DNA of 64,000 nucleotides from positions 32,001-96,000 of the IMG/VR virus record IMGVR_UViG_3300010885_020782; one strand, 5' to 3'. The stretch comes from a virus. The notes beneath the pieces are model-generated. The model was not told the DNA's origin. It was given only the letters and a program-made list of their open reading frames with translations, and did no database searches. A program made the position numbers and the translations under genes. Below are positions 43,317-63,236 of the stretch, in pieces. The number at the start of each line of letters is the position of its first letter. Within the stretch, counting starts at the first letter, position 1.

Positions 43317-43546
43317 TGCAGGAAAAGACAGGTAAAAAGTAAAAACTTGCGAGCGCAAAGTTATCCACACCCTGTGGATAACTTTCACTTCCCAACAACT
43401 TCCGCAGGGGTGCAAATGTGTGGTGCAACTCACACGACATTTTTAATCTTTTTTGCCAAATGTGGTTGCGTTACCCGTAGCCAACCCTTATACTTCAGTT
43501 AGTGGAAATCGCAAGGGGCGATGGATACAAAGGGGAGATGATAGAA

Positions 43547-43921
43547 ATGTCTTACGGCTCATTTCACAATCTACTTGCTGGGAACAGTAAGTCCCTTACC
43601 GAAATTGAAATCGGTATGGGCGCAACACAAATCGGCTGGTCTGACCGCTACGCCTACACAGTAGTAGGGTTCGAGCGTTTCAAGACAGGTGCAAAGGCTG
43701 GACAAATAAAGGCAGTAATTGCCACTCGCGACATTGCAAAGCGCACAGACTCAAACGGCTACTACACAGAGAGCCAAGATTACGAGTTCACTACCAATCC
43801 AAACGCTAAGCAAGAACGCTACACACTCCGCAAAGATGGTCGCTTTATGCGTGAAGGCGCAACTAATTCAGGCGTTCTCCTAGTCGGTGTGCGAATGGAA
43901 TACTTCGACCCACACTTCTAA
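43547..43921 (+). CDS. cassette hypothetical protein
   Basis: GMGAT..GWSDRYAYTVV motif. A leaderless GTG start at 43502 is an alternative. Confidence 0.75.
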   Translation: MSYGSFHNLLAGNSKSLTEIEIGMGATQIGWSDRYAYTVVGFERFKTGAKAGQIKAVIATRDIAKRTDSNGYYTESQDYEFTTNPNAKQERYTLRKDGRFMREGATNSGVLLVGVRMEYFDPHF

Positions 43922-43932
43922 AGTCGGAAAGG

Positions 43933-43963
43933 AAGCCCCCTCGGAAGAGGGGGTTTCTTTTTT
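43933..43963 (+). terminator. intrinsic terminator
   Basis: CCCCCTC-GGAA-GAGGGGG followed by a T-tract. Confidence 0.85.
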
Positions 43964-44144
43964 GCTGGAAAAATTAAAACTATGTAAAAAGTAAAAACTT
44001 GCGAGCGTCAAAAAATGTGATGCAACTCACACCAGCACATCTAAACAATTTTCCCAAATGGTCTTGCAACTACTCAACTAATTAGATACACTTAGACCAA
44101 GAAGCCAAGCCACAGGGGGCAAGGCAACTAACAAAGGGAAGCAA

Positions 44145-44408
44145 ATGTCTAAACTAATCACAGACGCAGAACTAATCGCAGTAATGAACGGCACAAACAA
44201 AGACGGAAAGAAAGTCTTTCTTGCACTTTTTGAGCCACGAAAGAACTCACTTCCACAAATGGACGGACGCTCCGTAACCTTCCACGCAGACACTAAGGCA
44301 GAGGCAGAACGCCTAGCCAAAGAATACGGCAGAAGGATTTTGGATAGACGCTTAGCGTATCTAATGTCTTGCGAGGTTGAGGAAGCCCGCTACGGACTTC
44401 GCTACTAA
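44145..44408 (+). CDS. cassette hypothetical protein
   Basis: Own promoter, RBS AAAGGGA and terminator. Confidence 0.75.
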   Translation: MSKLITDAELIAVMNGTNKDGKKVFLALFEPRKNSLPQMDGRSVTFHADTKAEAERLAKEYGRRILDRRLAYLMSCEVEEARYGLRY

Positions 44409-44418
44409 AGTTAGCGAG

Positions 44419-44450
44419 AAGCCCCCGAGAAATCGGGGGTTTCTTTTTTT
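44419..44450 (+). terminator. intrinsic terminator
   Basis: CCCCCGA-GAAA-TCGGGGG followed by a T-tract. Confidence 0.85.
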
Positions 44451-44612
44451 GCATTTTATTTTTTGATTTTGAGTAAAAAGTAAAAACTTAGTGGCTAGTG
44501 CTCGCAACTTCCAAACAACTTTTAGACACCGCACAGGGGGTGGAGAGAAATGGGCTTGCATTGTTGCAACATATCTTGTATGCTATATCTACCAACTACG
44601 AAAGGAAACAAA

Positions 44613-44906
44613 ATGCAATTCACAATTGACCCGCAACTAGGTTCAGGCACTTCACTCAAAGGTTATGTAACTTCAACACTTGCAGAACTTATTGAAACCT
44701 TCGGAGAGCCCGAATACTTCGCAGAGGGCGACAAAGTAACAGTAGAGTGGTCAATCCTTTTTGATAACGGCACAGTCGCAACAATCTACGACTGGAAGCG
44801 TTACGAGATGGGAAGACCTGCACTCACCGAGGTATTCCAATACAACATTGGCGGACACGACCACGAGGCAGTAACGCTAGTAAAAAAGGCACTCCGCAAG
44901 GGGTAG
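44613..44906 (+). CDS. conserved phage hypothetical protein
   Basis: GTSLKGY...FGEP...DKVTVEW...ATIYDWK...NIGG pattern. Confidence 0.75.
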   Translation: MQFTIDPQLGSGTSLKGYVTSTLAELIETFGEPEYFAEGDKVTVEWSILFDNGTVATIYDWKRYEMGRPALTEVFQYNIGGHDHEAVTLVKKALRKG

Positions 44907-44973
44907 TCTCCCGACTTGCAATCAGTAATCCTATGGGTTATGCTTGCTATAAGACAAACTACGAAAGGAACAA

Positions 44974-45585
44974 ATGACAACAGAGACAACGAAAAACGCT
45001 ATACCGAAACGAGTTACATATAAAATTGTGGCTAGTGGGGAAGGAAAAATCATCAAGCGAAAGCAAGAACTTCCGCAAGATGTATTAGATATCTTCAAGG
45101 GTATTAGCGACATAAAGCAACGCAACCAATACATAATTGCATTGGGCGAGGCTGGCTGGACGGACTCTTCTATTGCAAGGGCAGTAGATGTTTCACGGGA
45201 ACGAGTAAGGCAACTTGCTCAACAAACAACGAGCGACACTTCTCTCATTGGTGATTTACCAATCCCAAAGCCACCGCGAGAAACAAAGTATTCTAAAGTC
45301 TATCCCGAACTTCCAAAAGAAATGCTTGACAGACTATTAGAACTAAAACCACTTGCCCAACAGGTAAGAGGACACGGCAAGATGTATCGTGCAGAGGCAG
45401 ATGAATACACCTACCTTCTCAATCAAGCAATAACAACTCAAGGCATTTCCGTATATCGTCTTGCAAAGTTATTGGGTGTAACTATTGGTGCAATCCAATT
45501 CCGCTTGACACGATACGGCTACCGAACAACAACAGGAAAAAGTAAGTGCTTCCAACCAATTCTAGAAAAGAACCGCCGTGGCTAA
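44974..45585 (+). CDS. double helix-turn-helix DNA-binding protein
   Basis: GWTDSSIARAVDVSRERVRQL and GISVYRLAKLLGVTIGAIQFRL. Confidence 0.8.
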   Translation: MTTETTKNAIPKRVTYKIVASGEGKIIKRKQELPQDVLDIFKGISDIKQRNQYIIALGEAGWTDSSIARAVDVSRERVRQLAQQTTSDTSLIGDLPIPKPPRETKYSKVYPELPKEMLDRLLELKPLAQQVRGHGKMYRAEADEYTYLLNQAITTQGISVYRLAKLLGVTIGAIQFRLTRYGYRTTTGKSKCFQPILEKNRRG

Positions 45586-45883: not shown

Positions 45884-45892
45884 ATTTATAAA

Positions 45893-46195: not shown

Positions 46196-46289
46196 CCTTC
46201 CTTGTCCTGCACAGAGCGTAAAAAGTAAAAACAACGCTCGGCTAGTCAATTTTAGATGACCAACCGAGCGTTGATTATTGAAAAGGTGT

Positions 46290-46721
46290 TTAGGCTACGA
46301 CTTCTACCGCAGTGTTCTTGAATAACTTAGTAATAAGTTTCTCATCTAGGACGAGTTCTTGGGTAGAACAACCACAAAAGTCAGCAAGGGCTTTTTTAGT
46401 TCCTTCGCTTAGGTGTCCGCGACTATCAGAACCTGCGTCATCAAACCCGAGAACAATAAGTTGTTCTTGAACTAAGGCGACAGACGCAGAGTTGTGAGCA
46501 AACTTGTTTCCAAGCGCAGACAACGAAACAACTCCCGCAGTTGTTGAAACAACAGCAGGGGACTTTTTACTTTTTACTACTGGTTCAGGCTCGACAGCCA
46601 CAGCAAGAACAGGGGCAGGTTCTTCAACCACAGCCACAACCTCTACAACGGCGTCAGAAGCCTTTACTACTTCAGGCTCTACCGCAGGGGTAAAGACACT
46701 ATAAAGGTCTTCATTACTCAT
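46290..46721 (-). CDS. protein with C-terminal peptidoglycan-binding-like domain
   Basis: SASVALVQEQL..LGF...G.L..GTKKALADF resembles PG_binding_1. Confidence 0.5.
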   Translation of the reverse strand: MSNEDLYSVFTPAVEPEVVKASDAVVEVVAVVEEPAPVLAVAVEPEPVVKSKKSPAVVSTTAGVVSLSALGNKFAHNSASVALVQEQLIVLGFDDAGSDSRGHLSEGTKKALADFCGCSTQELVLDEKLITKLFKNTAVEVVA

Positions 46722-47916: not shown

Positions 47917-48116
47917 TTGATACCCCCCTTTCAAGACAAAGCATATAACACTCCATCATAGAAGTCAAGGGCAATTAGAAAGGAATCAGGAAGAAGTTGT
48001 TGGGAAGTTGTGAAACCTGGCGAGCGCGAGGGCTTGGAGATACGCATAAAAAGTAAAAACTTACCCGCACAAAAAGAAACCCCGCACAAGGCGGGGCTTC
48101 TTCGTGGCAAAGTTAT

Positions 48117-48248: not shown

Positions 48249-48384
48249 TGGAATCCCCTTTCAATTTGTTAGGCACAATATAACAGTCTTCAGGCAGTAA
48301 AGCAAGGAAGTTGTTTAGAAGTTGCCCGCAGCGAGGCTTGGACTCACGCATAAAAAGTAAAAAGTCCCACGGGAAAAAACGCTA

Positions 48385-48651: not shown

Positions 48652-48797
48652 AAAAATACCCCCCGAGAATTAGATGAACAACGCAATAATAACTAACATC
48701 ATCTAAAAAGTCAAGCAAGCAGAAGAAAAGAAAGGCTGTAAGTGGGGGAAGTAACCTACAGCCTAACTCTCGGAGAAGTAGGAAAAAGGGGTTTAGC

Positions 48798-48950
48798 CTA
48801 CTTCTCTCGACTTGCTAAGGTTGCAGAGGCAACCGCAGACAAGCCCAAACTAATAGACCACGCCACACTACCTTGCCAAGACGCCACGAAAGACGCCACG
48901 ATAAACAAGATAGTTCCAACAGCAGTCCAAACTATATTCAAGTTGTTCAT
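48798..48950 (-). CDS. 50-aa two-TM membrane microprotein
   Basis: Manual translation: MNNLNIVWTAVGTILFIVASFVASWQGSVAWSISLGLSAVASATLASREK. Confidence 0.6.
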   Translation of the reverse strand: MNNLNIVWTAVGTILFIVASFVASWQGSVAWSISLGLSAVASATLASREK

Positions 48951-49153
48951 TTGTTTCCCTTCTTTCCTTTAGGACTTGTGCGTCCTTTAGTTCTAGCAGA
49001 GGGGTTTCTTATTTCAGCCCCACCACCTTGAATTGCTTTGCGAGCGCAACGATAGGACACGGCAAGTTCTCTAGCCACATCATCTATCGAAAGACCACCG
49101 CGATACAAAGAACTTGCGCTGGCTTCTAACTTTTTACTTTTTGCTACTCTCAC
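48947..49153 (-). CDS. small helix-turn-helix DNA-binding protein
   Basis: LYRGGLSIDDVARELAVSYRCARKAI plus a basic tail. Confidence 0.75.
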   Translation of the reverse strand: MRVAKSKKLEASASSLYRGGLSIDDVARELAVSYRCARKAIQGGGAEIRNPSARTKGRTSPKGKKGNK

Positions 49154-49635
49154 GCAGACTTGTCCTCTTCATCTTCGTAAGGTCGTTGAACCGCGTTACG
49201 AATTACCGCAGGGTCTAATCCCTTGTCCCTCAGCCATTGAGCAGTCTGTGGGTCTTGTGCGTTGTCTGTAACGTGCCTTCCTTCGTTCCAAGTAAAGAAA
49301 GAAGTTGTTCCTTCAGGTAGAACCCAAAGATGGTATTGGTTAGAGGTATCAACAAGTTGGCTTTCAGGTGGAAAGATTTCTACGGCTTCTCTTTCAGAAC
49401 CTGCAAGTTCGTTCTTGATACGCTGGAAGTGTCGCCAATCTCTAATAGCCTTGCGTTCGTTATGACGAATCGAAAGGTGAAGACCACTGGTTTCTCCAAG
49501 TTCAGGTTCTAAAATTGTCTTGACGACAACATAAAACCTGTTCTTCCAAATTGTTTGATGGGGTTCAAGGTCAATCTTCTTCCCATTTACAGTTGGAGTT
49601 GCTTCCTCGAACTTATCCCAAAGGGGCTTAGTCAT
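49150..49635 (-). CDS. conserved hypothetical protein
   Basis: HLSIR...DWRHFQRIKNELAG.EREAVEIFPPESQLVD..N.YHLW widespread motif. Confidence 0.7.
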   Translation of the reverse strand: MTKPLWDKFEEATPTVNGKKIDLEPHQTIWKNRFYVVVKTILEPELGETSGLHLSIRHNERKAIRDWRHFQRIKNELAGSEREAVEIFPPESQLVDTSNQYHLWVLPEGTTSFFTWNEGRHVTDNAQDPQTAQWLRDKGLDPAVIRNAVQRPYEDEEDKSA

Positions 49636-49802
49636 TATCCGCGCCTCTTCTTGATAACTCGATAGATTCCATAACCAAGCAGAGCAACAATTAGTGCTGG
49701 GGTATAGACAGATACGCCAAAGAAGTTTGACGAAATTTCAATCCACTCGAACTGGCAAGTGAAACTACAGTTAGCGTCAGAAATTACCTGTGTTGTTTCC
49801 AT
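49635..49802 (-). CDS. 55-aa single-TM protein
   Basis: METTQVISDANCSFTCQFEWIEISSNFFGVSVYTPALIVALLGYGIYRVIKKRRG. Motif A overlaps its ATG. Confidence 0.6.
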   Translation of the reverse strand: METTQVISDANCSFTCQFEWIEISSNFFGVSVYTPALIVALLGYGIYRVIKKRRG

Positions 49803-49956
49803 TTTTACTTTTTACTCCTTTCGTCTCGTAGAAGTTTCCGCAACCGATAATTCTCTTTTGTGAGATTTCGGTGGGACATTATTGAGATTACCATTACGGC
49901 GCACGAACTGGCGAGCGCAATAGTAATTCCGATTAGCGTTCCTGTATCTAAATACA

Positions 49957-50205
49957 TTAGTTTCCCTTCTCTAGTTTGATAAACACTTCATCTTTTTTTA
50001 GATGAGGCATAGGTAATGCTTCCATAAAGGCTTTTACTTCCGCTTTTGTTTCCAGTTTGCACCACTTCTCGAACTGTTCATCACTCATAAACGCGAACTT
50101 GAGCAAGAACTCCGCACGATTAGTTGGTATTGGGGTTCTCTCTTTTAGGAGAGATTCTTTATTTTTTTCTAAAGTATTTCTTTTTTTAGTTCTCCAGCCC
50201 GACAT
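49957..50205 (-). CDS. hypothetical protein
   Basis: ORF with RBS AAGGGGGA. Confidence 0.55.
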   Translation of the reverse strand: MSGWRTKKRNTLEKNKESLLKERTPIPTNRAEFLLKFAFMSDEQFEKWCKLETKAEVKAFMEALPMPHLKKDEVFIKLEKGN

Positions 50206-50216
50206 TTTATTCCCCC

Positions 50217-50372
50217 TTATGGATACAACAGGTCTAGGCAGAATTGGTTCATCTGCTCTGTTGGAACTTTACACATTTCAGGTGTTGTGGCGTCTAACGC
50301 CCACGCCATAAGCGCGAGAAAGATAAGCCCAACCGCAATACGGCGTCTTACATACTTTGCTTCTGTTTTCAT
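50217..50372 (-). CDS. 51-aa membrane microprotein
   Basis: MKTEAKYVRRRIAVGLIFLALMAWALDATTPEMCKVPTEQMNQFCLDLLYP; promoter at 50426-50454. Confidence 0.55.
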   Translation of the reverse strand: MKTEAKYVRRRIAVGLIFLALMAWALDATTPEMCKVPTEQMNQFCLDLLYP

Positions 50373-50469
50373 TTCTTGCCCCTTTTCATTTTGTCTTTTT
50401 GTTAGTCCCCTTGACCAACAAGATAAGCATACAACACTTTACCCTTTTAGGCAACTTCCCTGCCTTTTA

Positions 50470-50796
50470 TTATTTTGGCGTGTCGCTCTTTTTCTCACGC
50501 CAAATTACAGGCATAGTTTCTTTTCTTGGCTCTCGCTCGGCACGCTTCTTATTAGAACGCTCTGCCAACCAAATCATAGGCATTGCTATCATAATCAGAG
50601 CCTCTACGAAGCCTTGACCTTCGGAGCGATAAGGCTTAGGTGTTTCCTCAACCACGATAGTAATTGAGCCTTGTGAGCGTTCAGGCTTTTCAGCCTTTAC
50701 CTTGTGAGCCTTTGCCTTTTTCTTAGCACTCTTTTTTACAATACTCTTTACACGCTTGGCAGTTCCTAGAACCGCACTATCAGGTAGTCCATACAT
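50470..50796 (-). CDS. basic hypothetical protein with one TM segment
   Basis: Own promoter and RBS AAAGGGGA. Confidence 0.6.
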   Translation of the reverse strand: MYGLPDSAVLGTAKRVKSIVKKSAKKKAKAHKVKAEKPERSQGSITIVVEETPKPYRSEGQGFVEALIMIAMPMIWLAERSNKKRAEREPRKETMPVIWREKKSDTPK

Positions 50797-50919
50797 CTTG
50801 TTCCCCTTTCGTTGTTGTTAGCCCAAGTATAACACTCTCTCCCCCCGAAAGTCAAACAGGGGGTTCGGGGAGAGAGCGTGTCGTTTAGGGGGCACATAGA
50901 AAGTTTTTACTTTTTACTA

Positions 50920-51060
50920 TCAACCCCAGTTAGTTTGGCACAGTTTCCATATTAGTTCTAAGACATTGTTCTTAGCCTCATAACTCTTTTCTGTTTCCAA
51001 CACTTTCGCATACTCCTCTAGTGCGAATATGATTGTGCCCTTCTCTTTAGTGTCTAGCAT
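50920..51060 (-). CDS. 46-aa hypothetical protein
   Basis: MLDTKEKGTIIFALEEYAKVLETEKSYEAKNNVLELIWKLCQTNWG, with RBS AAGGGAGA. Confidence 0.55.
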   Translation of the reverse strand: MLDTKEKGTIIFALEEYAKVLETEKSYEAKNNVLELIWKLCQTNWG

Positions 51061-51185
51061 TGTTCTCCCTTTTCTTTTTAGTGTTTAGCATTTACCGCAG
51101 ACCAAACCATTATAGTAATTGTCTTGGTCAATCCTCATTGACTTACCGCACTTCCAGCAAGCGACATAAATCATCACCTTCCGCA

Positions 51186-51551
51186 TTAGCGTAGCCCTCT
51201 CACCAAAGTAATCACATTGACCGCTTTGTAAGTAAAGAGTTCATAAGAGCCTTCGCAATCGCACTTGGCTTTTATTTCATCACCTTTGTAGTCATACATA
51301 CAATCGCAGTTGTCGTGGCGATAGTAAACATAAATAGTTCCTTCGCAATCCTCTATCTTGTAGATAGTTCCGCTAATCGCATAGTTGTTTTGATTATCTA
51401 CAACATCACGAATAAAAACATCAAGAGCAGAAAAACCTTCTCCACCTTGATACATAACATCGTCAATCATCAAAGTAGTTTCATCATCATTGTAGATAGA
51501 ACCCTTGTATGAAAGAGTTTCATTTACATCGTAAAGAGTTTCTGTTTCCAT
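51186..51551 (-). CDS. acidic hypothetical protein
   Basis: RBS AAGGGGGA and clean ORF. Confidence 0.65.
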   Translation of the reverse strand: METETLYDVNETLSYKGSIYNDDETTLMIDDVMYQGGEGFSALDVFIRDVVDNQNNYAISGTIYKIEDCEGTIYVYYRHDNCDCMYDYKGDEIKAKCDCEGSYELFTYKAVNVITLVRGLR

Positions 51552-51637
51552 TTTAGTTTCCCCCTTAGAAAACTTGTTGTTAGATGAAGTTTACCCTACT
51601 TGCCATTTTTTAGCAAGTAGGGCAACCTCGGCGTGTC

Positions 51638-51898
51638 TTAGGCTTCGTAGGCTAGTGCGTAGCCTCTGTCGTAAACCTTTGCGTTTTTCTTATCAAGAGC
51701 AAACCAGCGAGCCTCTTGTGTGCTTCCAAGAACAACAACCTTGCTTTGGCGTTGTGGCTTTTCTGCCATTCCCCAAACCATTGTTACCTTGTTACCCTCT
51801 AGGGTAATTTCGTAAATCTTTTTCTTACCTGACTGACCGCGACTTCCGTCGCTTTGCTTGACCAAGACCCACTTGGTCGTTGTTAGTGTTGTGGACAC
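51638..51898 (-). CDS. WGR-domain-like protein
   Basis: KIYEITLEGNKVTMVWG...Q.K......EA......K..K...GY matches the WGR fold pattern. Confidence 0.65.
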   Translation of the reverse strand: MSTTLTTTKWVLVKQSDGSRGQSGKKKIYEITLEGNKVTMVWGMAEKPQRQSKVVVLGSTQEARWFALDKKNAKVYDRGYALAYEA

Positions 51899-52303
51899 TT
51901 GTTTCCCCTTTTTCTTTTTGTAGTTGTGTCGTTGTTTTATTTAGTTGTTATTTAGTTGTTGGTGTAAGTATAAAACTTTTTTCTTGATAAGTCAAGTTAT
52001 TAGTTTTACCTAGTGGCGGGGTTTCGCCTAGTTCCTCACTTTTCTACCCTGTTTAGTTGTTGTAGGAGTATTGTAGCGTTTTGGATACCATAACGCAACT
52101 TATACTCGGCGTGTCGTGGTGTGAGTTACATCACACGATTACAACCTGTGGATAACTTTTGGAAGTTGAGGCGAGGCGGGCACCGGAGCGTGTAAAAAGT
52201 AAAAACTCTCCCCTGAGTCCCCACTTCGCAACAACCTACCCGCGAGCGCAATAAAAAAATCCCCCACCTCTCGGCAGGGGACTTTTAGGGAAGTTATCTG
52301 TAT

Positions 52304-52777: not shown

Positions 52778-52962
52778 TTGTCCCCCTTTCTTAGGTAACC
52801 GAAGTATAACAACCTATCACGAAGAAAGTCAAGTCAAGACACGAAAGTTATTGTGAAGTGCAGGACCGGCGAGGGCCCGGACTGAACAAAACTTTTTACT
52901 TTTTACTTTCATAGGGAGATGCAAAAGCCCCCGCATCTCTGCGAGGGCTTCCGCGTCAACCT

Positions 52963-53103: not shown

Positions 53104-53296
53104 ACTTCCCCCTTTCTCTAATGTAGCCTAAGTATAATAGTCGGCTAGAGATAAGTCAAGGGCAGACACGAAAGTTATTATGAAGTCGAATGCACTTGGT
53201 TGCTGTTGCTGAAGAAAGTTTTTACTTTTTACTGTTACCGCAAAAAAAAAGAAAGAGAGCGCGGGGGGAACCGCGCCCTCTCCTTGTGGGGGAAGA

Positions 53297-54147: not shown

Positions 54148-54391
54148 AGTTGAATAATAAACCATCAACCGCAATAAGTCAAGTATCTAATAAACCGAAA
54201 GTGTGTTCTACATCACATAAAAAGTTCTCGAAAACATTAACATTTATTTTGCTAAGGGTTTTAGCCAATAGGCGTGAGAAAGTTGTTTGGAAGTCCAGCA
54301 CCGCTAGGGGACAGCCCCGCATAGTTTTTACTTTTTACTTTCCTATTGCAAAAGAAAAACCCCGTATTTCTACGGGGCTTCTCTCTAAGGC

Positions 54392-54580
54392 TTATATTGC
54401 CTCTGCCATAAGGCAACGCATTTCTTCTTCCGCAACATCTATTGCGTATTCAAAGTTCTCCGCGTTTGCGACATAACCTGCACGATAGGAATACTCCCCA
54501 CCGAACACGCCACGCCAAAGTTCAAGATGGTTCTCTACGCGATAGAGCCTGTATTCGCCTTGCTTCTTGATAGCACGCAT
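54392..54580 (-). CDS. cassette hypothetical protein
   Basis: Own promoter, RBS AAAGGGGGA and terminator (54349-54380). Confidence 0.65.
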   Translation of the reverse strand: MRAIKKQGEYRLYRVENHLELWRGVFGGEYSYRAGYVANAENFEYAIDVAEEEMRCLMAEAI

Positions 54581-54762
54581 TGTGTTCCCCCTTTCTGTTG
54601 CCCTAAGTATAACCCTAGAAAGGTTCATAAGTCAAGTCAAGACACGAAAGTTATTGTGAAGTCCAGCACCGCTAGGGGTAAGTCCGCGTATAAGTTTTTA
54701 CTTTTTACTGTTTCACCGCAAAAGAAAAAACCCCACCCGAAGGTGGGGCTTCTCCTAATTGT

Positions 54763-54945
54763 TTATCTGTAACCCGCAGCGTGGAGAGCCTTGAAAATAT
54801 TGTTCACTCTTTCAACATTTATTTTCTCGTGCTCGTTCTCTTGCTTGTAGTTCATCATTTCAAACTCTTGAAGAACGCAATCAAGTTGTGCTATTTGGCG
54901 TGCGTCAAAAGTTACTGTAATGGTAGTGCCTGTTGCTATACCCAT
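54763..54945 (-). CDS. cassette hypothetical protein
   Basis: Own promoter, RBS and terminator (54720-54752). Confidence 0.6.
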   Translation of the reverse strand: MGIATGTTITVTFDARQIAQLDCVLQEFEMMNYKQENEHEKINVERVNNIFKALHAAGYR

Positions 54946-55010
54946 TTGGTATCCCCCTTTCCCTGTAAGGCAATAATAACACTAGGTGCAACCCTAAGTC
55001 AAGTCCATTT

Positions 55011-55340
55011 TTATTCCGTGTCGTCCTCGAAATCCTCGCCATCAAGGTCGAAGAAGCCCTGTCCTATGAGAGTTTCAAAACCCTTGTTCGGGTCTGTTGG
55101 GTGAGAGTTCACCGCGTCAATAAACCTAAGACCGCAAGAACCCTCGAACCACTCTTTTAGAAGTTCTAACATCTGTTCGGGTGTTGCTTCCGCATTAGTA
55201 ATAAGTGGGTCATAACCATAACCGCGCATTACCTCTACCTGCTCATCGTCCATTAGCAAGTAAATCTTGTGGCAAGTATCGAACGCAATAGCCTTTGCGT
55301 CCTGCACTCTTTCTTCTACCAAACTGTAATCAACACTCAT
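55011..55340 (-). CDS. acidic hypothetical protein
   Basis: AIAFDTCHKIYLLMD motif; coupled to the upstream ORF. Confidence 0.65.
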   Translation of the reverse strand: MSVDYSLVEERVQDAKAIAFDTCHKIYLLMDDEQVEVMRGYGYDPLITNAEATPEQMLELLKEWFEGSCGLRFIDAVNSHPTDPNKGFETLIGQGFFDLDGEDFEDDTE

Positions 55341-55561
55341 TTCTTTTCCTTTCCAAACTCACAACGGCATTTGGTGTAATACTCACCGCAACTCTTGTGG
55401 CAAGCAAATTCATCTACAAGTCCCGACAACATCATTTCTTCAAAGTCCGAGAATTGTCCGACAATACCTTTCGGCACATATTCCTCTACAACATCTTCCT
55501 CGTCATAGATTTCTTGCTCCCGCATAATCCAAGCGTCTAACGCTCTTTTATCAAGGCTCAT
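55337..55561 (-). CDS. hypothetical protein with C-terminal Cys cluster
   Basis: Clean ORF. Confidence 0.55.
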   Translation of the reverse strand: MSLDKRALDAWIMREQEIYDEEDVVEEYVPKGIVGQFSDFEEMMLSGLVDEFACHKSCGEYYTKCRCEFGKEKK

Positions 55562-55659
55562 TTTTTCTCCCCTTCTTCTTTTTCTAGTAGCCCCATAAGT
55601 TCCATTTCTTCAAAGTAATCTAATGCTTCATTAGGTTCATCTATAAAGAAAAGCATTAC

Positions 55660-55767
55660 TTACGCCTCGCAATCGTGTCCATAAGCCCACTCGTTAGCAT
55701 CGTTGCTATCTAGTAGGTCAAACACTCTTGAACACTCTACGCATTTTGCTTTAGTTGAAATCTTCAT
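55660..55767 (-). CDS. 35-aa CxxC/HxC microprotein
   Basis: MKISTKAKCVECSRVFDLLDSNDANEWAYGHDCEA; own promoter and RBS. Confidence 0.6.
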   Translation of the reverse strand: MKISTKAKCVECSRVFDLLDSNDANEWAYGHDCEA

Positions 55768-55827
55768 TTCATTTCCCCTTTTCATTTGGTCTTGCTAAGG
55801 CAAGTATAAGACCTGCCATAGCAAAAG

Positions 55828-56064
55828 TCAAGTATTCTTTTTATTCTTTTTTGACTCTTGAAACTTTTCTTCGCAAGAGTAGTTGTAGCAAACATTGTCC
55901 TTGTCGGTGTTATACATAGAAAGTTTCTTTTCGCAGATAACGCAGAAGCGAGTGTTTTTATTTATTTGCGTTGGTGTTCTACCCGGCCCCGCAATACCGC
56001 GACCCGCGTAATGAGTTGGGCGAATATAAACTCTGCCAAACTCGTCAAACTCTACTGAATCCAT
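55828..56064 (-). CDS. hypothetical zinc-finger protein
   Basis: CVICEKKLS.YN...C..YSC. Confidence 0.55.
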   Translation of the reverse strand: MDSVEFDEFGRVYIRPTHYAGRGIAGPGRTPTQINKNTRFCVICEKKLSMYNTDKDNVCYNYSCEEKFQESKKNKKNT

Positions 56065-56279
56065 TTCTTCCCCTTTTCTTTATTAGGTTCAGTAGGGGAG
56101 TCGTATTGTTTCCGCCCCTTGCAAGTTATAGGCGTTCAGGTGACCAGCGACTTTCCCCCTACTGAATACCCTAAGTATAACCAAAAGGGGAAGAAAGTCA
56201 AGTCCTCTAGGCACGACACGCCAAAGTTATTTGGAAGTTGCCCTCGCAGCGAACGCCGGCGAGCGCAAGTTTTTACTTT

Positions 56280-56855
56280 TTACTTCTCCCCGTAATACTG
56301 AACATTTATGTAAATCGGTGGGGCAGAGTTCGGGTCAAGTTTGGTGGCAATAGTTAGGGCTTGTCTAACCAAAGTCTTAGCCGTAGATAAAGTTCTTTTA
56401 CGGGTTTCCATAGTTCCAAGTAAAGAACCAAGTGCGTAGGAAGAACCTGTTCCGATAGCGTAGATACCGCTTTCATCTCTAGCCCAAGAGTAGTCGTTGC
56501 CTATCTCATAGATAGTCCCGTTGATTACGACCATCACATTACTGTCGTTATCGCTATCTTTGGAGTAAGAGTTTTCCTCAAAACATTTCTTCATTTCAGG
56601 GATAAAGGAAGCCGTCATAAATTTGTCTAACCTTAGACCATAGGTTGAGGGGCTAATGATGGGCGGTTTGAATATGTAGCAAAGAATATTTATGGCTCTA
56701 ACATCTCCAGCCACGCCAATGATGTAGTTCCCGTTCTTGAACATCTTGCCATTATCTTTTGGAAGTGAGTAAATCTTTTCGTTCTCCTCGGTTACCCGTG
56801 AGTCATATCCAACGACAGCCCAGTTCTCCCCTTGCACGCCAGCAATAGTCGTCAT
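56280..56855 (-). CDS. proteasome beta-subunit/HslV-like Ntn-hydrolase
   Basis: N-terminal M-TTIAG, YDSRVT, conserved K (GKMF), GVAG and AIGTGSSYALG. Confidence 0.8.
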   Translation of the reverse strand: MTTIAGVQGENWAVVGYDSRVTEENEKIYSLPKDNGKMFKNGNYIIGVAGDVRAINILCYIFKPPIISPSTYGLRLDKFMTASFIPEMKKCFEENSYSKDSDNDSNVMVVINGTIYEIGNDYSWARDESGIYAIGTGSSYALGSLLGTMETRKRTLSTAKTLVRQALTIATKLDPNSAPPIYINVQYYGEK

Positions 56856-56893
56856 CTTCTTCTCTCCCGTTACCCTTCAGTTTTTACTTTTTA

Positions 56894-57145
56894 CTACTTC
56901 CAGAAGCCGTCCCAGAGTTCTTCTCTAAGTTGTTCATACTTATCGCCGTGATGCCCGTTGTATTTCGCAGAAATATCTTCACCTCTAATGAGATAGTCTA
57001 GCGAAAGAACGGCGGTATAGTCAGTATCGCCAAACATAATAACAAGTTTAGCGTCCCCGTCAGAGGGGTCATCTACAATAGCAACAACGAAAGGCTCGCC
57101 AGAGCCGTTAGCGTGAAAGTCCTTAGCAATAATATCCATACCCAA
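56894..57145 (-). CDS. hypothetical protein
   Basis: DFHANGSGEPFVVAIV motif; stop codon overlaps motif A. Confidence 0.6.
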   Translation of the reverse strand: MGMDIIAKDFHANGSGEPFVVAIVDDPSDGDAKLVIMFGDTDYTAVLSLDYLIRGEDISAKYNGHHGDKYEQLREELWDGFWK

Positions 57146-57226
57146 AAGGGTAGGGGTTTTTTATACAGGTGATTTGGACAAAAAGAAACCCCTGCCGTTA
57201 GACAGGGGCTTCCTAAGTGTTTGCCG

Positions 57227-57424
57227 TTAGGAAACGGACACCCATTTGTGAGCCGTGCGAAGAACATTAGCGTAGTCGCCAGCCATACTTTCATCAAGGA
57301 AGCGGTTGATTTCTTCCTGTGAAACGCTTGCTCGGCGCAGAGCCGTAGCCACTCGTCCCATAATCGCAACGGCGTTGCCGTCTTGACCTGATAGCGCAAC
57401 TTCTATGTGGTCGTATTTTGCCAT
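57227..57424 (-). CDS. conserved small phage protein
   Basis: LSGQDGNA.AIMGRV..ALRR...GDY..VL pattern; own promoter and terminator (57180-57212). Confidence 0.7.
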   Translation of the reverse strand: MAKYDHIEVALSGQDGNAVAIMGRVATALRRASVSQEEINRFLDESMAGDYANVLRTAHKWVSVS

Positions 57425-57473
57425 TTGGTTTCCCCCTTTCTTTCCTCTAATTTTACTCGCTTGCTATCGTAAG

Positions 57474-57596
57474 TCAAGAACCGCACTCGGCGTGTCGCCT
57501 ACAATGAGTCCAGCAAGTTCCGCATACTCCGCAATGGTCTATCTGTGAGCCAACATCATAAGTTGTTTGGCAGTAGTCGCAAGAGCCAATGTCCAT
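57474..57596 (-). CDS. 40-aa Cys/His-rich microprotein
   Basis: CDYC...HCGVCGTCWTHC; own promoter and RBS. Confidence 0.6.
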   Translation of the reverse strand: MDIGSCDYCQTTYDVGSQIDHCGVCGTCWTHCRRHAECGS

Positions 57597-57816
57597 TTGT
57601 TTCCCCTTTTTGTTTGTAAGAGCAAGTATAGCAAAATAATTTAGAAAGTCAAGAATAGATACACACCGACTTCCCACAAGACAGGGGAAGGGGAAGTCGG
57701 CGGAGCAGAGAAGGGTATGTCTGCTCTCATCTAGGCAAGGCAGAAAGGGGAACGCCTCGCACTAGGTGGTTCTATTTTACACCGAAGTTTTTACTTTTTA
57801 CTTCGGCAAACCGCGT

Positions 57817-58164
57817 TTAGATTTTATCCACAATGGCTATGGGGACAATGACCTCGGCAGAAATAGTTTCGCCATTACCCGACTTTCGGGCGAACCGCCC
57901 TGTGGGGTTATCCAGCATTACAGTAATCTTGCTTCGCCTAATGCCAACAATTTGTGCTGTTTCGCCGACAAGGTATTTAGTTCCGCAACGCTCGTTGATA
58001 CGAACCTTGTCGCCAACTAGGAAGTCAGAAAGTTTTAGCGAACCGCGCTTCTCCTCAATTCGTTTATCAACCGCTTGACGCAAGATTTGTAAGTGGCTAT
58101 CAAGTTCTCCACTCTCTATCTTGTCTGTAAGTGAAACAATAAAGTCTAAGTTAGTCGTCGTCAT
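57817..58164 (-). CDS. hypothetical protein with KOW/SH3-like C-terminus
   Basis: DFLVGDKVRI...LVGETAQIVGIRRSKITV. Confidence 0.6.
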   Translation of the reverse strand: MTTTNLDFIVSLTDKIESGELDSHLQILRQAVDKRIEEKRGSLKLSDFLVGDKVRINERCGTKYLVGETAQIVGIRRSKITVMLDNPTGRFARKSGNGETISAEVIVPIAIVDKI

Positions 58165-58387
58165 TTTCTATCTCCTCTCCATTTTCATCTACGACACCAA
58201 TGTCGTTAGATACTTTGGCAACATCAAACCCATAGTATTCTTCCATAAAGATAGAAGCGCAACGAATAGCGAAGTCGTTATCGCTCTCTCCTTCGTTTCG
58301 CAATTCATTATGAAGAACGATAGTGGTCATTAGCGTAAAGTAATCGCCAACGAACATTACTGTTCTTGAAAGATTTATCTCGTCCAT
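58151..58387 (-). CDS. acidic hypothetical protein
   Basis: Clean, coupled ORF. Confidence 0.6.
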   Translation of the reverse strand: MDEINLSRTVMFVGDYFTLMTTIVLHNELRNEGESDNDFAIRCASIFMEEYYGFDVAKVSNDIGVVDENGEEIENDDD

Positions 58388-58617
58388 TAGTTATTTAGCC
58401 TACTTATGAACTCGCCAAACTTTTGGTCAAGGTCGTCAGAGGTTGAGCCATCAGGTAAGGTGAAAAACTTTTCACTACCTTGATAAGAGTATGTCCAAGT
58501 GCCTGTCTTCTCGTCCCAAATAGTTCCATCAGGAAACCGCACTTCTTCACTCTCAACATCAACCGACCAATGGTTTAGGTTGTCGTCATACTTCACTACG
58601 AAATGGTGTTCAGCCAT
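58387..58617 (-). CDS. hypothetical protein
   Basis: Own promoter and RBS AAGGGAGA. Confidence 0.6.
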   Translation of the reverse strand: MAEHHFVVKYDDNLNHWSVDVESEEVRFPDGTIWDEKTGTWTYSYQGSEKFFTLPDGSTSDDLDQKFGEFISRLNN

Positions 58618-58677
58618 TTTATTTCTCCCTTTCTTTCTTTGACTTATTATTCCACTACCCTAGTGGAAAGTCAAATC

Positions 58678-59829
58678 CTATTTTGCTAGGACATAAACCT
58701 TGTCTTTCATAACCAAAGGTTTGTCGTCCGGCCCCTTTACATAAGGTGCTATCCAAATCCGCTTCTTAGTATTGTCCTTGTAAGGTTGCCATCTCCAATG
58801 ACCGCCGACTACCCATCTGTGCGACCAATCTATGAAGCGACCATCATCAGACTTTTCTCCACTCTTGTATTCTGTTTTGCGAAGTTGCACAACAACATAC
58901 TCGCTAGGAAGTTTTGCCTTCTCCATAGACTTTCTAATTCCGCGTTGAGGTGTTTTCTTTTCAGTAGATACAATAGTTTGCGACATCATCAAAAAGTATG
59001 CGTGCATAAATCGTGGAAAGTTATCCATACCAACGAAATCGTTTTGATAGTTCTCTTTCCAATAGTCCGCGTCTAACTCAAATTGTTCTTGTCGCTTTTT
59101 TCCGCCGACCTTTTCTCCGTGTCCAGCAGACTCAACGGAAGAGAGCAACCACTTACCAACATTTCTACGGAACTCCGCAACACTCTTTCCTGTTGCCTCT
59201 GCTGTTCTTTCTAGCATAGGCATAGAGTCGTCAGCCATTACATCAAAATTATTGAATAAGTAATAAACAATTTGTCTATCTTGCATTTCCCAAAGAACGG
59301 CGTGGATTATGTATTTGTTTCCTTCTATGTCGTTTGTTTCTACGCCCTTCTCAAAGTAAGCAAAGCCTCTAAGACTAGGGACAAGTTCTAAGTCAAAGGT
59401 ATCTGTTTCATCTAGTTGATTAGAAGCGAACGCAATTACATCTGTCATTTCGCCTTTTACTAAATAAACATCAGCCTCTTCAGTAATCGTAACCATTTCC
59501 TTGACCATAGTTTCGGCAAGGTCAATTTTTGTTTTACCTGTTCTCATAGTCCCTGTTAGAGATAGAGCCTTCTTCTCTGTATCAAAAGTAACCGCAGAAC
59601 CATACTGCGCTACATTGTTTAGGCAGAATAGTTTTTGTCCATAGAAGAACAACGCACCTTTTTTGCCAGCAAGTTCTGTTTTGTATTTAGCAAAAATATC
59701 CCTAACAATTTCATCTTCTTCATCTCTGCACTTTACAGATAGGACATTAGTTAGGACATAACCCGCATTACCTTTTAGGCGCAGGTTTAGGTCGTTGAGT
59801 AGCGTAAGCGTTTCATCAGGTCTAATCAT
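58678..59829 (-). CDS. conserved phage protein with C-terminal HRWVVGGHWRWQ...IWIAPYVKGP motif
   Basis: 383-aa ORF with own promoter TTGACT-N17-TATACT. Confidence 0.75.
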   Translation of the reverse strand: MIRPDETLTLLNDLNLRLKGNAGYVLTNVLSVKCRDEEDEIVRDIFAKYKTELAGKKGALFFYGQKLFCLNNVAQYGSAVTFDTEKKALSLTGTMRTGKTKIDLAETMVKEMVTITEEADVYLVKGEMTDVIAFASNQLDETDTFDLELVPSLRGFAYFEKGVETNDIEGNKYIIHAVLWEMQDRQIVYYLFNNFDVMADDSMPMLERTAEATGKSVAEFRRNVGKWLLSSVESAGHGEKVGGKKRQEQFELDADYWKENYQNDFVGMDNFPRFMHAYFLMMSQTIVSTEKKTPQRGIRKSMEKAKLPSEYVVVQLRKTEYKSGEKSDDGRFIDWSHRWVVGGHWRWQPYKDNTKKRIWIAPYVKGPDDKPLVMKDKVYVLAK

Positions 59830-59883
59830 TTGTTTCCCCTTTTCATACCCTAAGTATAAAACTATCTTTCCCCAAAGTCAAGT

Positions 59884-60336: not shown

Positions 60337-60468
60337 AGTGCAACCTTATCAAATAGTTTTTGGTTTTGCAACTTATCTCTCCCCTGCGTGTCGTTTGTGT
60401 TTTTACTTTTTACTATCCCTGTTTTGTAAGAAACCCCCCACCCTTTCGGGTGAGGGGCTTCCTCGCAA

Positions 60469-60855: not shown

Positions 60856-60989
60856 AAGCCCAATTCCCTTCGTCGTTTTGTATTTTTACTTCATTAGGTA
60901 TCTGACCTAACAAAGAGAACTTTACCCTTTTGCCAAGCGATAAGCAAATCCAAATGAGCGTGTCGCCAAAAAATCTTTTGTGATTTGGC

Positions 60990-61205
60990 TCACACCTTTC
61001 CCCACGCTCGGGCTTCTGTGTATGGCTCTGCCACAAAGTCAGCCCCTTTGATTAGGTCATAAGGAAAGTCAGCCTTAGCCCTTGCTTCTCCAATGCGCTC
61101 GGCTTCGGCTTCGGTTTTGGCTTCTACTTCGTAATAAGCATTTGTTGCGGTTTCATCTTCAGAGAAGTATCCACGCACTATCCACTTTTTACTTTTTACT
61201 TTCAA
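60990..61205 (-). CDS. hypothetical protein (start uncertain)
   Basis: A TTG start near 61205 is inferred from an upstream GGAG; motif A lies in the first codons. Confidence 0.45.
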   Translation of the reverse strand: MKVKSKKWIVRGYFSEDETATNAYYEVEAKTEAEAERIGEARAKADFPYDLIKGADFVAEPYTEARAWGKV

Positions 61206-61355
61206 TCCAGTTTCTCCACTTCTATCTCGGTTGAGCGTGAGAGGTCGTGTCCATACTCGTTCTCCAACCACTCTCTTGCTTGTGTTTCAGCACCCCGTTG
61301 CGTTTCGGAACTCACCTCTGTCCCGAAGTGGGAGATGAAGGTGGCTTTCCAGCGG

Positions 61356-61601
61356 TTAGTCATTAGGGCTTGCCGTTTCTGCTAATACCTCGTTCGCTAA
61401 ATCTACGAAGTCTTCGGCAGCAGAACTTTGGAAATACCACTCGCCGTCTTCATACTTGTCGCAGACTTGCTCCCATTGTTCGTCCGTCAAGGTCAAGCCG
61501 TCTGCGTATCCTTCAACACACTCTTTGTCCCAGTATGCAACAAGCAACTCGGTTTCAGGTGCGTATGCCGTTAGTTGTTCTATTAGTTTTTTTACTTGCA
61601 T
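61356..61601 (-). CDS. acidic hypothetical protein
   Basis: Motif A lies 1 nt upstream of the ATG. Confidence 0.65.
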   Translation of the reverse strand: MQVKKLIEQLTAYAPETELLVAYWDKECVEGYADGLTLTDEQWEQVCDKYEDGEWYFQSSAAEDFVDLANEVLAETASPND

Positions 61602-61763
61602 AGTTTTTACTTTTTACCTTTCTTGGTTATGCGCTCGCCAGTTGTCGGTTAGGTTCGTGCGGTAGTGGAACATCTCCACGCCAATCACAAACCGAGCCGT
61701 TGTATGTATCTATCCACATACCAAAATCTTGCTTTACTTCCCAGCCACACTTGCGACAGATAT

Positions 61764-62003
61764 TCACTCTTGCCACCCGCCCGTCATAACTTCCCAACAA
61801 CTTGGGTGCGTGCCTGTAATCATTTGCTCACGCAACGCCTTATCCATTTCAGGGTAAGCGTCTTGAATAGCACCGCCTAATTGGCGAATAAGAAATCCCT
61901 TCATAGGAACTTCAACTGTTCCACCCTTGCCACACATTGTGCAAGTAGGGGTTTCAACTATGTAAGTTGTTTCCTCTACTACCTTTCCGAACTCTGTTTC
62001 CAT
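61764..62003 (-). CDS. zinc-ribbon phage protein
   Basis: CTMCG...IQDAYP...REQMITGTHPSCW. Confidence 0.7.
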   Translation of the reverse strand: METEFGKVVEETTYIVETPTCTMCGKGGTVEVPMKGFLIRQLGGAIQDAYPEMDKALREQMITGTHPSCWEVMTGGWQE

Positions 62004-62042
62004 TTGTTTCCCTTTCTAGTTGGTTGGCTAATAATAACAAAA

Positions 62043-62570
62043 TTAAAAGTGGAAGTCAATCGGCACTAGGTATTGGCGTGTCGGGTCTTTCTCCACTCGT
62101 TCCCAAAAGAACTCTAGGCTTGCCGAGTGTTCCTTTAGGTCATAAACACCTGTATCAGAACACCAATCATTAGAGAGAAGTCGTCCTAACCGCAGTAAAG
62201 ACCAAGCGTCCATAGTTGAGCCATAGTTATACTTGTTTGGGTTGTAGTCCTCAACAAGTTGTTCTAGGTTGAAGCCTTCTGTTTTTATTTGTTCTAGGTA
62301 TCGCAACATTTCTTTTTTACGATAACTAGCAAAGTCTTTGATAATGTCGTTTGCAAGAACGGGGTTCTCTGTGTATGCAAGAACATCTCTGTTCTCTTCC
62401 CAGCCTTCAAACAATCCTGACCAGCGACCAGCAAGCCCTTCGTCAAGACCCCCGTGCCAATCTGACCACGCAGGGTATGGAGTTTCTGAATAAGTAATAG
62501 TTGTTTTGGCGTAGTCAATAGCGTCCTGTGCGCTATCCGCTTCAATCAACATAATCTGACAAGTGTGCAT
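62043..62570 (-). CDS. conserved hypothetical protein
   Basis: WSDWH....AGRWSG and C-terminal YLVPIDFHF; motif A overlaps the ATG. Confidence 0.7.
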   Translation of the reverse strand: MHTCQIMLIEADSAQDAIDYAKTTITYSETPYPAWSDWHGGLDEGLAGRWSGLFEGWEENRDVLAYTENPVLANDIIKDFASYRKKEMLRYLEQIKTEGFNLEQLVEDYNPNKYNYGSTMDAWSLLRLGRLLSNDWCSDTGVYDLKEHSASLEFFWERVEKDPTRQYLVPIDFHF

Positions 62571-62625
62571 TTTTACTTTTTACCCTTTCTTTCGTTCTTG
62601 GTTGAGAACTATTATCCCATTTTAT

Positions 62626-63066
62626 TTATGCAAAGTCAAGTAGCAACATCTTTTCATTTTCATACTGTTCCTTCACATAGGAACTCGCACTTTGGAGAGC
62701 CTCTGAAATACTGTCGCATACCCAATCTAAATGCTCTCCGCGACAATACAAGTCAAACCAGTTGTTGTTGTCCCAGTTCAAGGCGTTCTCGCCATTAGCA
62801 AGGCGTAAGTCCTCATCACAATTTATACCTAAGCCATAAAAATCTGACGCAGTTCTAAGGATTGTTTCTGTTGGTTCGTGGATTACACGAACTTCTCCAT
62901 CTGCATAAACATCTACCTCAAACCCTTTATAGGAAACTTGGCAGATAAATCCATCACCTTCATACCAAAGGCTATCGTCTTGTTTTTCTAAGTTGGGAGC
63001 AACTCCAGAAAACATAGAAGCCCAAACAACTTTTGAACCTTCTAATAATTCTTCTACTGTTTTCAC
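62626..63066 (-). CDS. hypothetical protein
   Basis: GTG start after GAAAGGA. Confidence 0.6.
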   Translation of the reverse strand: MKTVEELLEGSKVVWASMFSGVAPNLEKQDDSLWYEGDGFICQVSYKGFEVDVYADGEVRVIHEPTETILRTASDFYGLGINCDEDLRLANGENALNWDNNNWFDLYCRGEHLDWVCDSISEALQSASSYVKEQYENEKMLLLDFA

Positions 63067-63236
63067 TTCTATCCTTTCGTCATTGGTTTTTACTTTTTAC
63101 TAAGTAGTAAGTGAAACCCCACAAAGGGGGTAAGGGGGCTTCACCTACTTAGGGTGTTGGTTCGCAGGTTCAGTTGTGGTGGAACTGACTTGCGTTGGAA
63201 GGACGCACCACACGAACCAACACTTCTTTTAGAACA

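Follow-up and report, generated by a model that had tools for sequence, protein, structure and literature searches.

A conserved A5-GT-A5 word at the junctions of small early genes, a candidate operator in a clade of large phages

Why would one short, asymmetric word recur at the junctions between small genes in a single region of a phage genome, and is it read there as DNA or as RNA? The question is raised by a stretch of 64,000 nucleotides (the window) comprising bases 32001-96000 of a 127,375-bp IMG/VR virus record, IMGVR_UViG_3300010885_020782, of ~95% completeness. The original prediction, drawn from the letters of the window, described an asymmetric 15-bp element, here called motif A, and suggested that it was a stoperator-like operator or an RNA-level signal. 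We followed this element through the whole genome and its relatives. The comparisons indicate that motif A is a real, strongly selected and clade-defining feature, under purifying selection at orthologous junctions. The reading we prefer, which we hold tentatively and somewhat short of an even chance, is that motif A is an operator, bound on DNA by a small protein of the phage that would insulate early transcription units or shut them off. Some probability is kept in reserve for mechanisms outside the four readings weighed below. Positions are those of the window unless marked as genome positions.

In the window the 13-mer core occurs exactly 22 times against 0.01 expected, a count reached in 0 of 100 shuffles, and the 15-mer occurs 23 times at up to two mismatches against 0.42 expected. 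The multi-copy element described at the outset is therefore there, although its tally needed correcting, from 22 copies with 21 exact to 22 exact copies plus a variant at 49130. All window copies lie at 43332-63100, with none in 1-43 kb even at two mismatches, which bears out the confinement to 43.3-63.1 kb first proposed. Across the whole 127-kb genome we found 29 exact 13-mer cores, all within genome 75.3-105.1 kb, and none for a reversed control. This motif field covers 30 kb of small early genes, runs ~10 kb beyond the end of the window and leaves the other 97 kb without copies; at genome 103904-103932 it includes a tandem of three to four heptamers. Collagen-repeat codons excepted, motif A is the most over-represented word in the genome.

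To find the motif elsewhere we scanned viral contigs. A plain 15-mer scan was swamped by single chance matches; a 17-mer scan recovered relatives, returning five related contigs with 4-26 exact cores each and a control of 0. Three of these (G001-3) are 88-91% identical to this genome, and two (G004 and G005) are ~71% identical over less than half their length. In orthologous alignments with G001-3 the 15 motif positions are 97-99% identical versus 88-93% for the flanks, and in the alignment with G004 the motif is 90% identical versus 69%. The positions immediately adjoining motif A are the least conserved. In G004, and in L182 from a second motif-bearing lineage (lineage 2), motif A stands at orthologous junctions within surrounding sequence that is unrelated. 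Lineage 2 also shows the same contexts, with a cassette, an ATG at position 14, an in-frame copy and a copy after a stop codon. Conservation in relatives, one of the points on which the original prediction could have failed, is thus what we observed, in the form of motif copies kept at orthologous junctions. The comparison also shortened the element. Positions 1, 2 and 15 of the 15-mer are variable, and because positions 1-2 vary in lineage 2, the invariant core across relatives is the 12-mer A5-GT-A5. Lineage 2 does not conserve the first G-T, which weakens a tandem-heptamer reading, (G-T-A5) twice.

Megablast against deposited phages gave zero matches. The closest deposited genome is that of the metagenome-assembled Actinomycetia phage DSL-LC01, with ~75% protein identity in terminase and polymerase, followed by large Microbacterium, Gordonia and Arthrobacter siphoviruses; GC content is 43% in this phage versus 54.6% in DSL-LC01. 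These nearest relatives and the GC content therefore suggest that this uncultured phage is a large siphovirus of a low-GC, probably freshwater, actinobacterium. DSL-LC01 has been called lysogenic by software prediction alone (PMC10611076), and it holds zero copies of motif A, even with one mismatch. We compared motif-bearing and motif-free loci among viral-contig loci encoding relatives of P0001, a protein of 203 amino acids (aa) with two sigma-region-4-like helix-turn-helix (HTH) units (44974..45585, +) that is universal in the phage family. Among the 44 long loci, 12 have at least four motif copies and 32 have none. All motif-bearing loci fall on one side of a 99/98-supported branch of the P0001 tree, in five sub-lineages with long branches between them. 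By this tree, the motif-bearing loci are one clade with deep internal branches, in which motif A arose once.

Motif A is placed as closely as it is conserved, at ~30 boundaries between small early genes, and all but 2-4 of the 29 copies sit at gene borders. The contexts originally listed, namely after terminators, on stop codons, on start codons and in first codons, are all correct. Copies lie on or beside stop codons at 49801, 50903, 56269, 56880 and 57787, and on or directly before start codons at 49801, 61603, 62569 and genome 105085. The copy at 49801..49815 (-) joins two genes, with the stop of a 50-aa gene at motif positions 9-11 and the ATG of a 55-aa gene at position 14, a geometry kept in G004 and L182. 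Another, at 50903..50917 (-), comes 2 nt past a stop codon, and promoter 50855 has its -35 a further 47 nt downstream. At 57787..57801 (-) the motif stands 15 nt past the stop of a 115-aa gene with a 6-bp inverted repeat on both sides, and at 60399..60413 (-) it stands ~20 nt past a terminator and upstream of the next gene's Shine-Dalgarno (SD) sequence and start, with an orthologous copy in G004. The copy at 61603..61617 (-) ends 1 nt 5' of the ATG of an 81-aa gene. That at 62569..62583 (-) lies in a 5' untranslated region (UTR), downstream of promoter 62639, with the ATG of a 175-aa gene at position 14, likewise in G004; that at 63086..63100 (-) follows a hairpin and precedes the GTG start of a 146-aa gene by 19 nt. 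Two copies bracket a gene for a 191-aa proteasome/HslV-like protein (56280-56855, -) found among the early genes: 56269..56283 (-), whose positions 2-4 are its stop codon and which is followed by box 2 (described below) and promoter 56201, and 56880..56894 (-), which abuts the stop of the upstream open reading frame (ORF) 24 nt before the ATG and has orthologous copies in G004 and L182. The DSL-LC01 homolog of this protein is annotated as an ATP-dependent protease subunit.

Four copies lie in frame and encode V-K-S-K-K/N: 46563..46577 (-) in a 143-aa ORF (V-K-S-K-K), 49130..49144 (-), 61185..61199 (-) near the 5' end of a 93-aa ORF, and genome 104633. The second is the variant with C at position 2 and forms codons 4-8 of a 68-aa HTH gene. 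In the 143-aa ORF the nucleotides of the motif are kept in G004 and L182, where the protein is just 41-51% identical. All four are in the sense orientation, for which the probability is ~0.004 if orientation were free, though the inverted form would be stop-free in every frame.

Orientation is biased across the whole field. Twenty-five of the 29 genome copies point along transcription, as do all copies in clearly transcribed positions, and in the window the predicted 18 of 22 is also the figure for exact copies. The inverted copies, four in number, all lie within ~40 nt past a minus-strand terminator hairpin, three of them within ~15 nt. One, at 46218..46232 (+), is inverted relative to minus-strand transcription and its complement doubles as the U-tract of the region's best terminator, which has a 17-bp stem (46273-46232, -), likewise in G004. 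A second, 48046..48060 (+), has A at position 1, lies 3-13 nt (depending on the stem call) past a minus-strand terminator at ~48090-48064 and is upstream of box 2 and promoter 47968. The third, 48350..48364 (+), is 15 nt past minus-strand terminator 48402-48380 and upstream of box 2 (48322), and the fourth, 52192..52206 (+), is at a minus-strand junction ~40 nt past a terminator hairpin. Three of the four retain the core in G001-3, the 46218 copy is found in G004 too, and inverted copies also occur in lineage 2. This conservation of inverted copies favours recognition on DNA. The orientation data as a whole fit an orientation-dependent mechanism, as in stoperators (PMC9283540) or an RNA signal. 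They also fit an alternative of our own, that the site is bidirectional and its U-rich tract is tolerated in transcripts only directly after a terminator.

An RNA-level signal would take the form of an A-rich mRNA word read by a protein or nuclease, either a RegA-like operator or enhancer between SD and AUG or a RegB- or RNase E-like site that separates cistrons after terminator hairpins. We consider this unlikely, although it is the main rival to the operator. The sense bias just described speaks for it, including the co-orientation of every clearly transcribed copy and the in-frame copies, which are always sense though the antisense is open in all frames and whose nucleotides are fixed at synonymous sites across lineages. 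So does the geometry at starts, where ATG falls at motif position 14 in five junctions of three lineages with a purine-rich, SD-like run immediately 5' of the motif. On the other side, ~10 copies come after a strong terminator but before the next promoter and would thus be present only in read-through RNA, the inverted copies are conserved, and the distance from motif A to start codons ranges from overlap (0) to >100 nt. Motif A itself has neither an SD core nor SD complementarity; SD-like runs, where present, are upstream of it. A search of Rfam with motif A returned sub-threshold chance rows only and no family, and among the motif-linked proteins no RNA-binding or RNase domain was found.

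We next consider the terminators and promoters among which many copies lie. A typical junction begins with a G+C-rich terminator hairpin and T-run, a 7-20 nt spacer, motif A and a G+C-rich spacer of 27-41 nt, and continues with a conserved A/C-rich 16-mer that we call box 2, 11-24 nt, the two promoter hexamers (-35 and -10), an SD that is rich in purines and includes a G run, and the start codon. Box 2 occurs at 43387-43402, 44507-44522, 47993-48008, 52844-52859, 53171-53186, 54279-54294, 54647-54662 and 56223-56238, upstream of the -35 of the strong promoters by the 11-24 nt given above. On the plus strand, motif A at 43332..43346 (an exact 15-mer) follows terminator 43293-43308 and precedes box 2 (43387) and the promoter of a 139-aa gene; the exact copy at 43984..43998 follows terminator 43937-43953 and precedes a box-2-like site and the promoter of an 87-aa gene; and the exact copy at 44473..44487 follows terminator 44416-44445, with box 2 at 44507. 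On the minus strand, cassettes in the order terminator, motif A, box 2 and promoter contain the copies at 52892..52906 (promoter 52832), 53218..53232 (promoter 53159) and 54694..54708 (promoter 54635), and a cassette of terminator, motif A and box 2 (54294) contains that at 54324..54338. A tight spacing between terminator and motif was rejected, as only 8-10 copies follow strong hairpins and the gap after the T-run varies over 7-20 nt.

The promoters themselves are 15 near-identical sigma-A-type sequences, matching the consensus at 10 of 12 positions, all on the minus strand at 48686-59881. Every one of them drives a single small gene or a few. Promoters of a second flavour, with another -10, are found at genome 97-105 kb. 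Motif A might accordingly be a promoter-associated element, whether an upstream activating or UP-like site for sigma-A-type promoters or itself the promoter for a phage-modified polymerase making leaderless mRNAs with ATG at position 14. In its favour, 8-10 copies lie upstream of strong promoters in this phage, sister lineages have an A6-type word that precedes the -35 by a fixed 28-29 nt in every junction of terminator and promoter, and in copies whose position 14 bears the ATG the first T-A5 hexamer coincides exactly with -12 to -7. However, no more than about half of the 15 strong promoters are preceded by a copy, and many copies have no nearby promoter, lie downstream of one or are intragenic. 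No copy overlaps a -35 or -10 hexamer, the closest being the 5' UTR copy downstream of promoter 62639, and the T-A5 hexamer is missing the T that is conserved at -7. The gene annotations turned up no phage RNA polymerase, and the sole sigma-like protein is universal and not motif-linked. A fixed-geometry element (UP or class I activator) is not supported by the 39 non-redundant forward copies, which lie 48-135 nt from the -35 without 10.5-bp phasing (Rayleigh R 0.15, p ~0.4), although the sister-clade words do show such a geometry. A promoter-associated role therefore seems improbable to us.

We also give little credence to the possibility that motif A has no dedicated reader and is a by-product, either microhomology by which expression cassettes are shuffled, as in promoter-early stem-loop (PeSL) arrays, or an A-tract that aids termination or binds a host nucleoid protein. 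The region does consist of small genes joined by stereotyped terminator-promoter junctions, indels between relatives are numerous, and one inverted copy works as a terminator U-tract. Yet breakpoints between relatives are not enriched at copies. We rejected a role as recombination junction because, among 97 synteny breakpoints whose positions are the imprecise ends of BLAST segments, 20% lay within 100 bp of a copy, compared with 19% when positions were drawn at random and 35% when they were drawn at random from intergenic DNA. Conservation ends sharply at 12-15 nt, which gene conversion would not produce, and 12 nt held exactly identical over deep divergence imply sequence-specific reading.

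A DNA operator would work as follows. One small sequence-specific phage protein would bind motif A on DNA, at sites that mark the borders of small early units: directly past intrinsic terminators, on stop codons, and on or just before starts. The bound protein would act as a roadblock that reinforces terminators, cuts operons and blocks or insulates transcription across borders, so that early expression, including that of the regulator's own gene, would be shut down or partitioned. Binding, the roadblock effect and its timing are what we infer here. The attraction of the operator reading is that a single DNA-level explanation spans every context, including the ~10 copies between a terminator and the next promoter where little RNA is expected, and that it accommodates inverted copies that retain the core, which an RNA signal would not predict. 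The variable, unphased promoter spacing and the variable start spacing also fit a position-tolerant block better than a promoter element. There is a precedent in Cluster A phages, in which a 13-bp asymmetric site is recognized in two parts by a monomer and elongation is blocked in an orientation-linked manner (PMC9283540).

Four observations weigh against the operator. The order SD, motif and ATG with a 12-13-nt gap is kept in three lineages and resembles a translation signal. The co-orientation of all four intragenic copies despite a stop-free inverse also fits an RNA-level role. The other two concern the protein we consider the leading candidate reader, P0125. G004 and G005 have the motif, yet no P0125 homolog is present in a 34-kb fragment spanning the whole motif field. 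And since motif A has one origin on the tree, its link to P0125 amounts to one phylogenetic contrast.

What points to P0125? It is a 68-aa HTH protein of Hin/homeodomain type (48947-49153, -) with a basic Gly-Arg-Thr-Ser-Pro-Lys tail. HTH_23, HTH_28 and HTH_7 match in 8-10 of 10 members of its family, the PDB match is the HTH of an IS21 transposase, and a basic Lys-Gly-Arg-Thr-(Ser/Arg)-Pro tail is kept in all members. Every lineage whose recognition helix reads Ser-Tyr-Arg-Cys-Ala-Arg bears motif A and has a copy in the first codons of the P0125 gene; in motif-free lineages, including DSL-LC01, the helix reads Thr-Tyr-Gly-Lys-Ala-Arg and the first codons hold no copy. Hin-type domains bind an asymmetric site of 12-13 bp as monomers, as Hin does on the hix half-site, with the basic arm in the minor groove of an A-tract. 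By analogy, this binding mode suits A5-GT-A5 for P0125, which would bind singly, placing a helix in the major groove and the basic tail in the minor groove of the A-tract. On sequence grounds, then, P0125 is the likeliest of the candidate readers of motif A, and a plausible monomeric binder. Of the three HTH proteins originally put forward, the one at 48947 thus held up in this qualified sense, and those at 41438 and 44974 are universal regardless of the motif.

The second of these, P0001, was rejected as a motif-specific reader. It is encoded in 12/12 motif-positive and 32/32 motif-negative loci with similar identity and near-invariant recognition helices, and its occurrence in every one of the 44 long loci means that it cannot account for a word confined to one clade. 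Its fold search gave weak, non-significant sigma-like and paired-domain-like rows only. P0001 may instead read box 2. Five proteins occur in 12/12 motif-positive and 0/32 motif-negative loci: the 115-aa protein, the 143-aa protein that holds an in-frame copy of motif A, two membrane proteins and a DUF7694 protein. The 50-aa and 55-aa motif-linked proteins were set aside as readers because they are small membrane proteins. The DUF7694 protein, of 161 aa, belongs to a family of >556 proteins in many kinds of contig, and its predicted model, though confident (pLDDT 86), gave no significant fold match, so we draw from it no inference on a reader role. Searches of the PDB with the P0001 sequence and fold and with the P0125 profile did not match the solved stoperator repressor; the genome itself was not searched with the repressor family.

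How does motif A compare with repeated words in other phages? To our knowledge, repeated oriented intergenic words occur in many actinobacteriophage clusters, with a mechanism established for the Cluster A stoperators only. Like those stoperators (L5 gp71/TipsytheTRex repressor; PMC9283540, PMC6550527), motif A is a short asymmetric site of 12-13 bp with >20 copies per genome, which occupy short gaps between genes and for the most part point along transcription, and its phage is an actinobacteriophage dependent on the host polymerase; a small monomeric HTH reader is shared as well, here as a plausible candidate. The differences are several. The motif A sequence is unrelated and A/T-rich, and it occupies 30 of 127 kb, in contrast to the whole genome with both arms and structural genes. 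One stoperator-type site overlaps the early lytic promoter, whereas motif A overlaps no hexamer; ~15% of motif A copies are inverted yet conserved, and many lie directly past intrinsic terminators. The Cluster A reader is an immunity repressor of gp71 type, with an N-terminal HTH and a Stoperator domain, to which the candidates here were dissimilar in PDB searches. The stoperator-like character first proposed, as operator or RNA signal, is accordingly supported in part, by conservation, confinement to the early region, orientation bias and the plausible binder at 48947, while membership in the stoperator family fails on the restricted distribution, the lack of promoter overlap, the inverted copies and the lack of a match between either candidate and the solved repressor in the PDB searches. 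Motif A works most like a stoperator without belonging to that family.

The start-associated sequence (SAS) and its extended form (ESAS) of Cluster K mycobacteriophages and Cluster EF Microbacterium phages, and the 18-bp motif of Cluster EC, are of unknown function (PMC3203893, PMC7302621). They too are conserved asymmetric words, of 13-18 bp in 10-19 repeats, co-oriented and adjoining the starts of non-structural genes in actinobacteriophages. SAS forms the ribosome-binding site, complementary to the 3' end of 16S rRNA, at a fixed distance of 3-8 nt from the start, and the EC motif keeps to 21-30 nt, unlike motif A, many copies of which are tied to unit ends. With no fixed start distance and no SD complementarity, motif A falls outside the SAS definition. 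Further repeated actinobacteriophage words are the inverted repeats of Clusters EG and O (PMC9283540, PMC7302621). The PeSL cassettes of T4-type phages share stereotyped terminator-plus-promoter junctions around small early genes in a hyperplastic region, but motif A is a separate 12-mer, neither stem-loop nor promoter, and breakpoints do not cluster on it. With the Hin DNA-binding domain the resemblance lies in a small resolvase-type HTH, P0125 matching HTH_7 and HTH_23 and having a basic tail; P0125 lacks a recombinase catalytic domain, however, and motif A sites are not paired inverted half-sites. The T4 RegA operators and RegB cleavage sites, which serve early shut-off, are likewise many, sense-oriented and close to where translation of early genes begins. 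These sites are degenerate and work at the RNA level, whereas motif A is exact, in poorly transcribed gaps and sometimes inverted.

Sister lineages carry other words at these junctions. In one sister sub-clade (L231, L241, L216, L211 and L196) we found five different A6-containing 12-14-mers at terminator-promoter junctions, which differ even between fairly close relatives. In L231 the geometry is constant, with the terminator T-run, 18 nt, the word and 28-29 nt to the -35, and with the T-rich strand along transcription. Because this sub-clade bears different A6-type words there, an A/T-rich word between terminator and promoter is a recurring feature of the family, the word itself being lineage-variable. 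In the DSL-LC01 and L204 type the junction repeats are highly conserved extended -10 promoters only, and in the L172 type there is a local iteron-like tandem array. A wider idea, somewhat more doubtful than an RNA signal, is that of a lineage-specific junction code in this family of freshwater actinophages, with A5-GT-A5 in one clade and at least five A6-type words in its sister. Each word would have as its reader a small HTH protein, monomeric and with an arm for the minor groove, by which single-gene early cassettes are insulated or silenced by the dozen; this would be stoperator logic outside the temperate Cluster A. Were it true, fast turnover of the words in the sister clade might set regulatory incompatibility or exclusion between co-infecting relatives.

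Whatever its mechanism, motif A offers a clean system, with a perfectly conserved 12-mer at ~30 sites in a defined clade, sister clades with other words at the same junctions, and a shortlist of readers headed by a 68-aa protein that is easy to produce and test. If protein binding is true, this would be a second mechanistic case of genome-scale boundary control in host-polymerase-dependent phages, and actinobacterial genetics would gain a portable part for use as insulator or roadblock. Should the word instead act at the RNA level, phages of abundant freshwater actinobacteria would have a new signal for translation or processing.

The surrounding region holds other repeated sequences. At genome 103050-103850 (L129:9050-9850), five inverted box-2-like 15-mers at ~70-bp spacing, with many A-A-C-C-G words, fill a gene-free 750 bp between a gene for a 40-aa zinc-ribbon protein and a whiB gene, both belonging to the genes at genome 102.8-104.1 kb, where whiB is on the minus strand. 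This array may be a regulatory array or a replication origin. In L172-L174, L197 and L199, ~19 copies of an 11-12-mer with heptamer substructure adjoin the P0001 homolog (~10.5-11.3 kb in L172) and resemble an iteron field or origin. DnaA-box-like 9-mers occur at 43355-43385, ~52150 and ~57830, once as a perfect inverted pair directly downstream of motif A. The early-cassette SD is a purine run with four or five G, of which there are 12 in genome 73.9-106 kb versus 0 in the other 95 kb, and the word G-C-G-A-G-C-G-C occurs 13 times in that interval versus once elsewhere, often within 30 nt of motif A.

Small minus-strand transcription units span genome ~108 kb down to 78 kb, convergent with a short plus-strand operon at genome 74-78 kb. 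Cluster A phages are temperate, with integration or partition functions, and their sites serve to silence the prophage; here no integrase or immunity cassette was found in the genome, and a 219-aa resolvase-type serine recombinase is the sole gene of recombination or partition type recovered. The phage also encodes a T4-type large terminase, portal, tape measure, Dit, major tail protein and collagen-like fibres; other genes encode a primase-helicase, a family A DNA polymerase, a helicase, a class II ribonucleotide reductase, a Mom-like protein and a CHAP endolysin. The divergent late and plus-strand operons are separated at 42200-42620 by a long stretch of non-coding DNA, in which G-rich words recur and small hairpins are present. 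The virion module includes two giant minus-strand genes, one for a 1890-aa protein with portal-, MuF- and protease-like segments (23302-28974) and one for a 2635-aa protein with exonuclease-like and anti-restriction-like segments (29454-37361).

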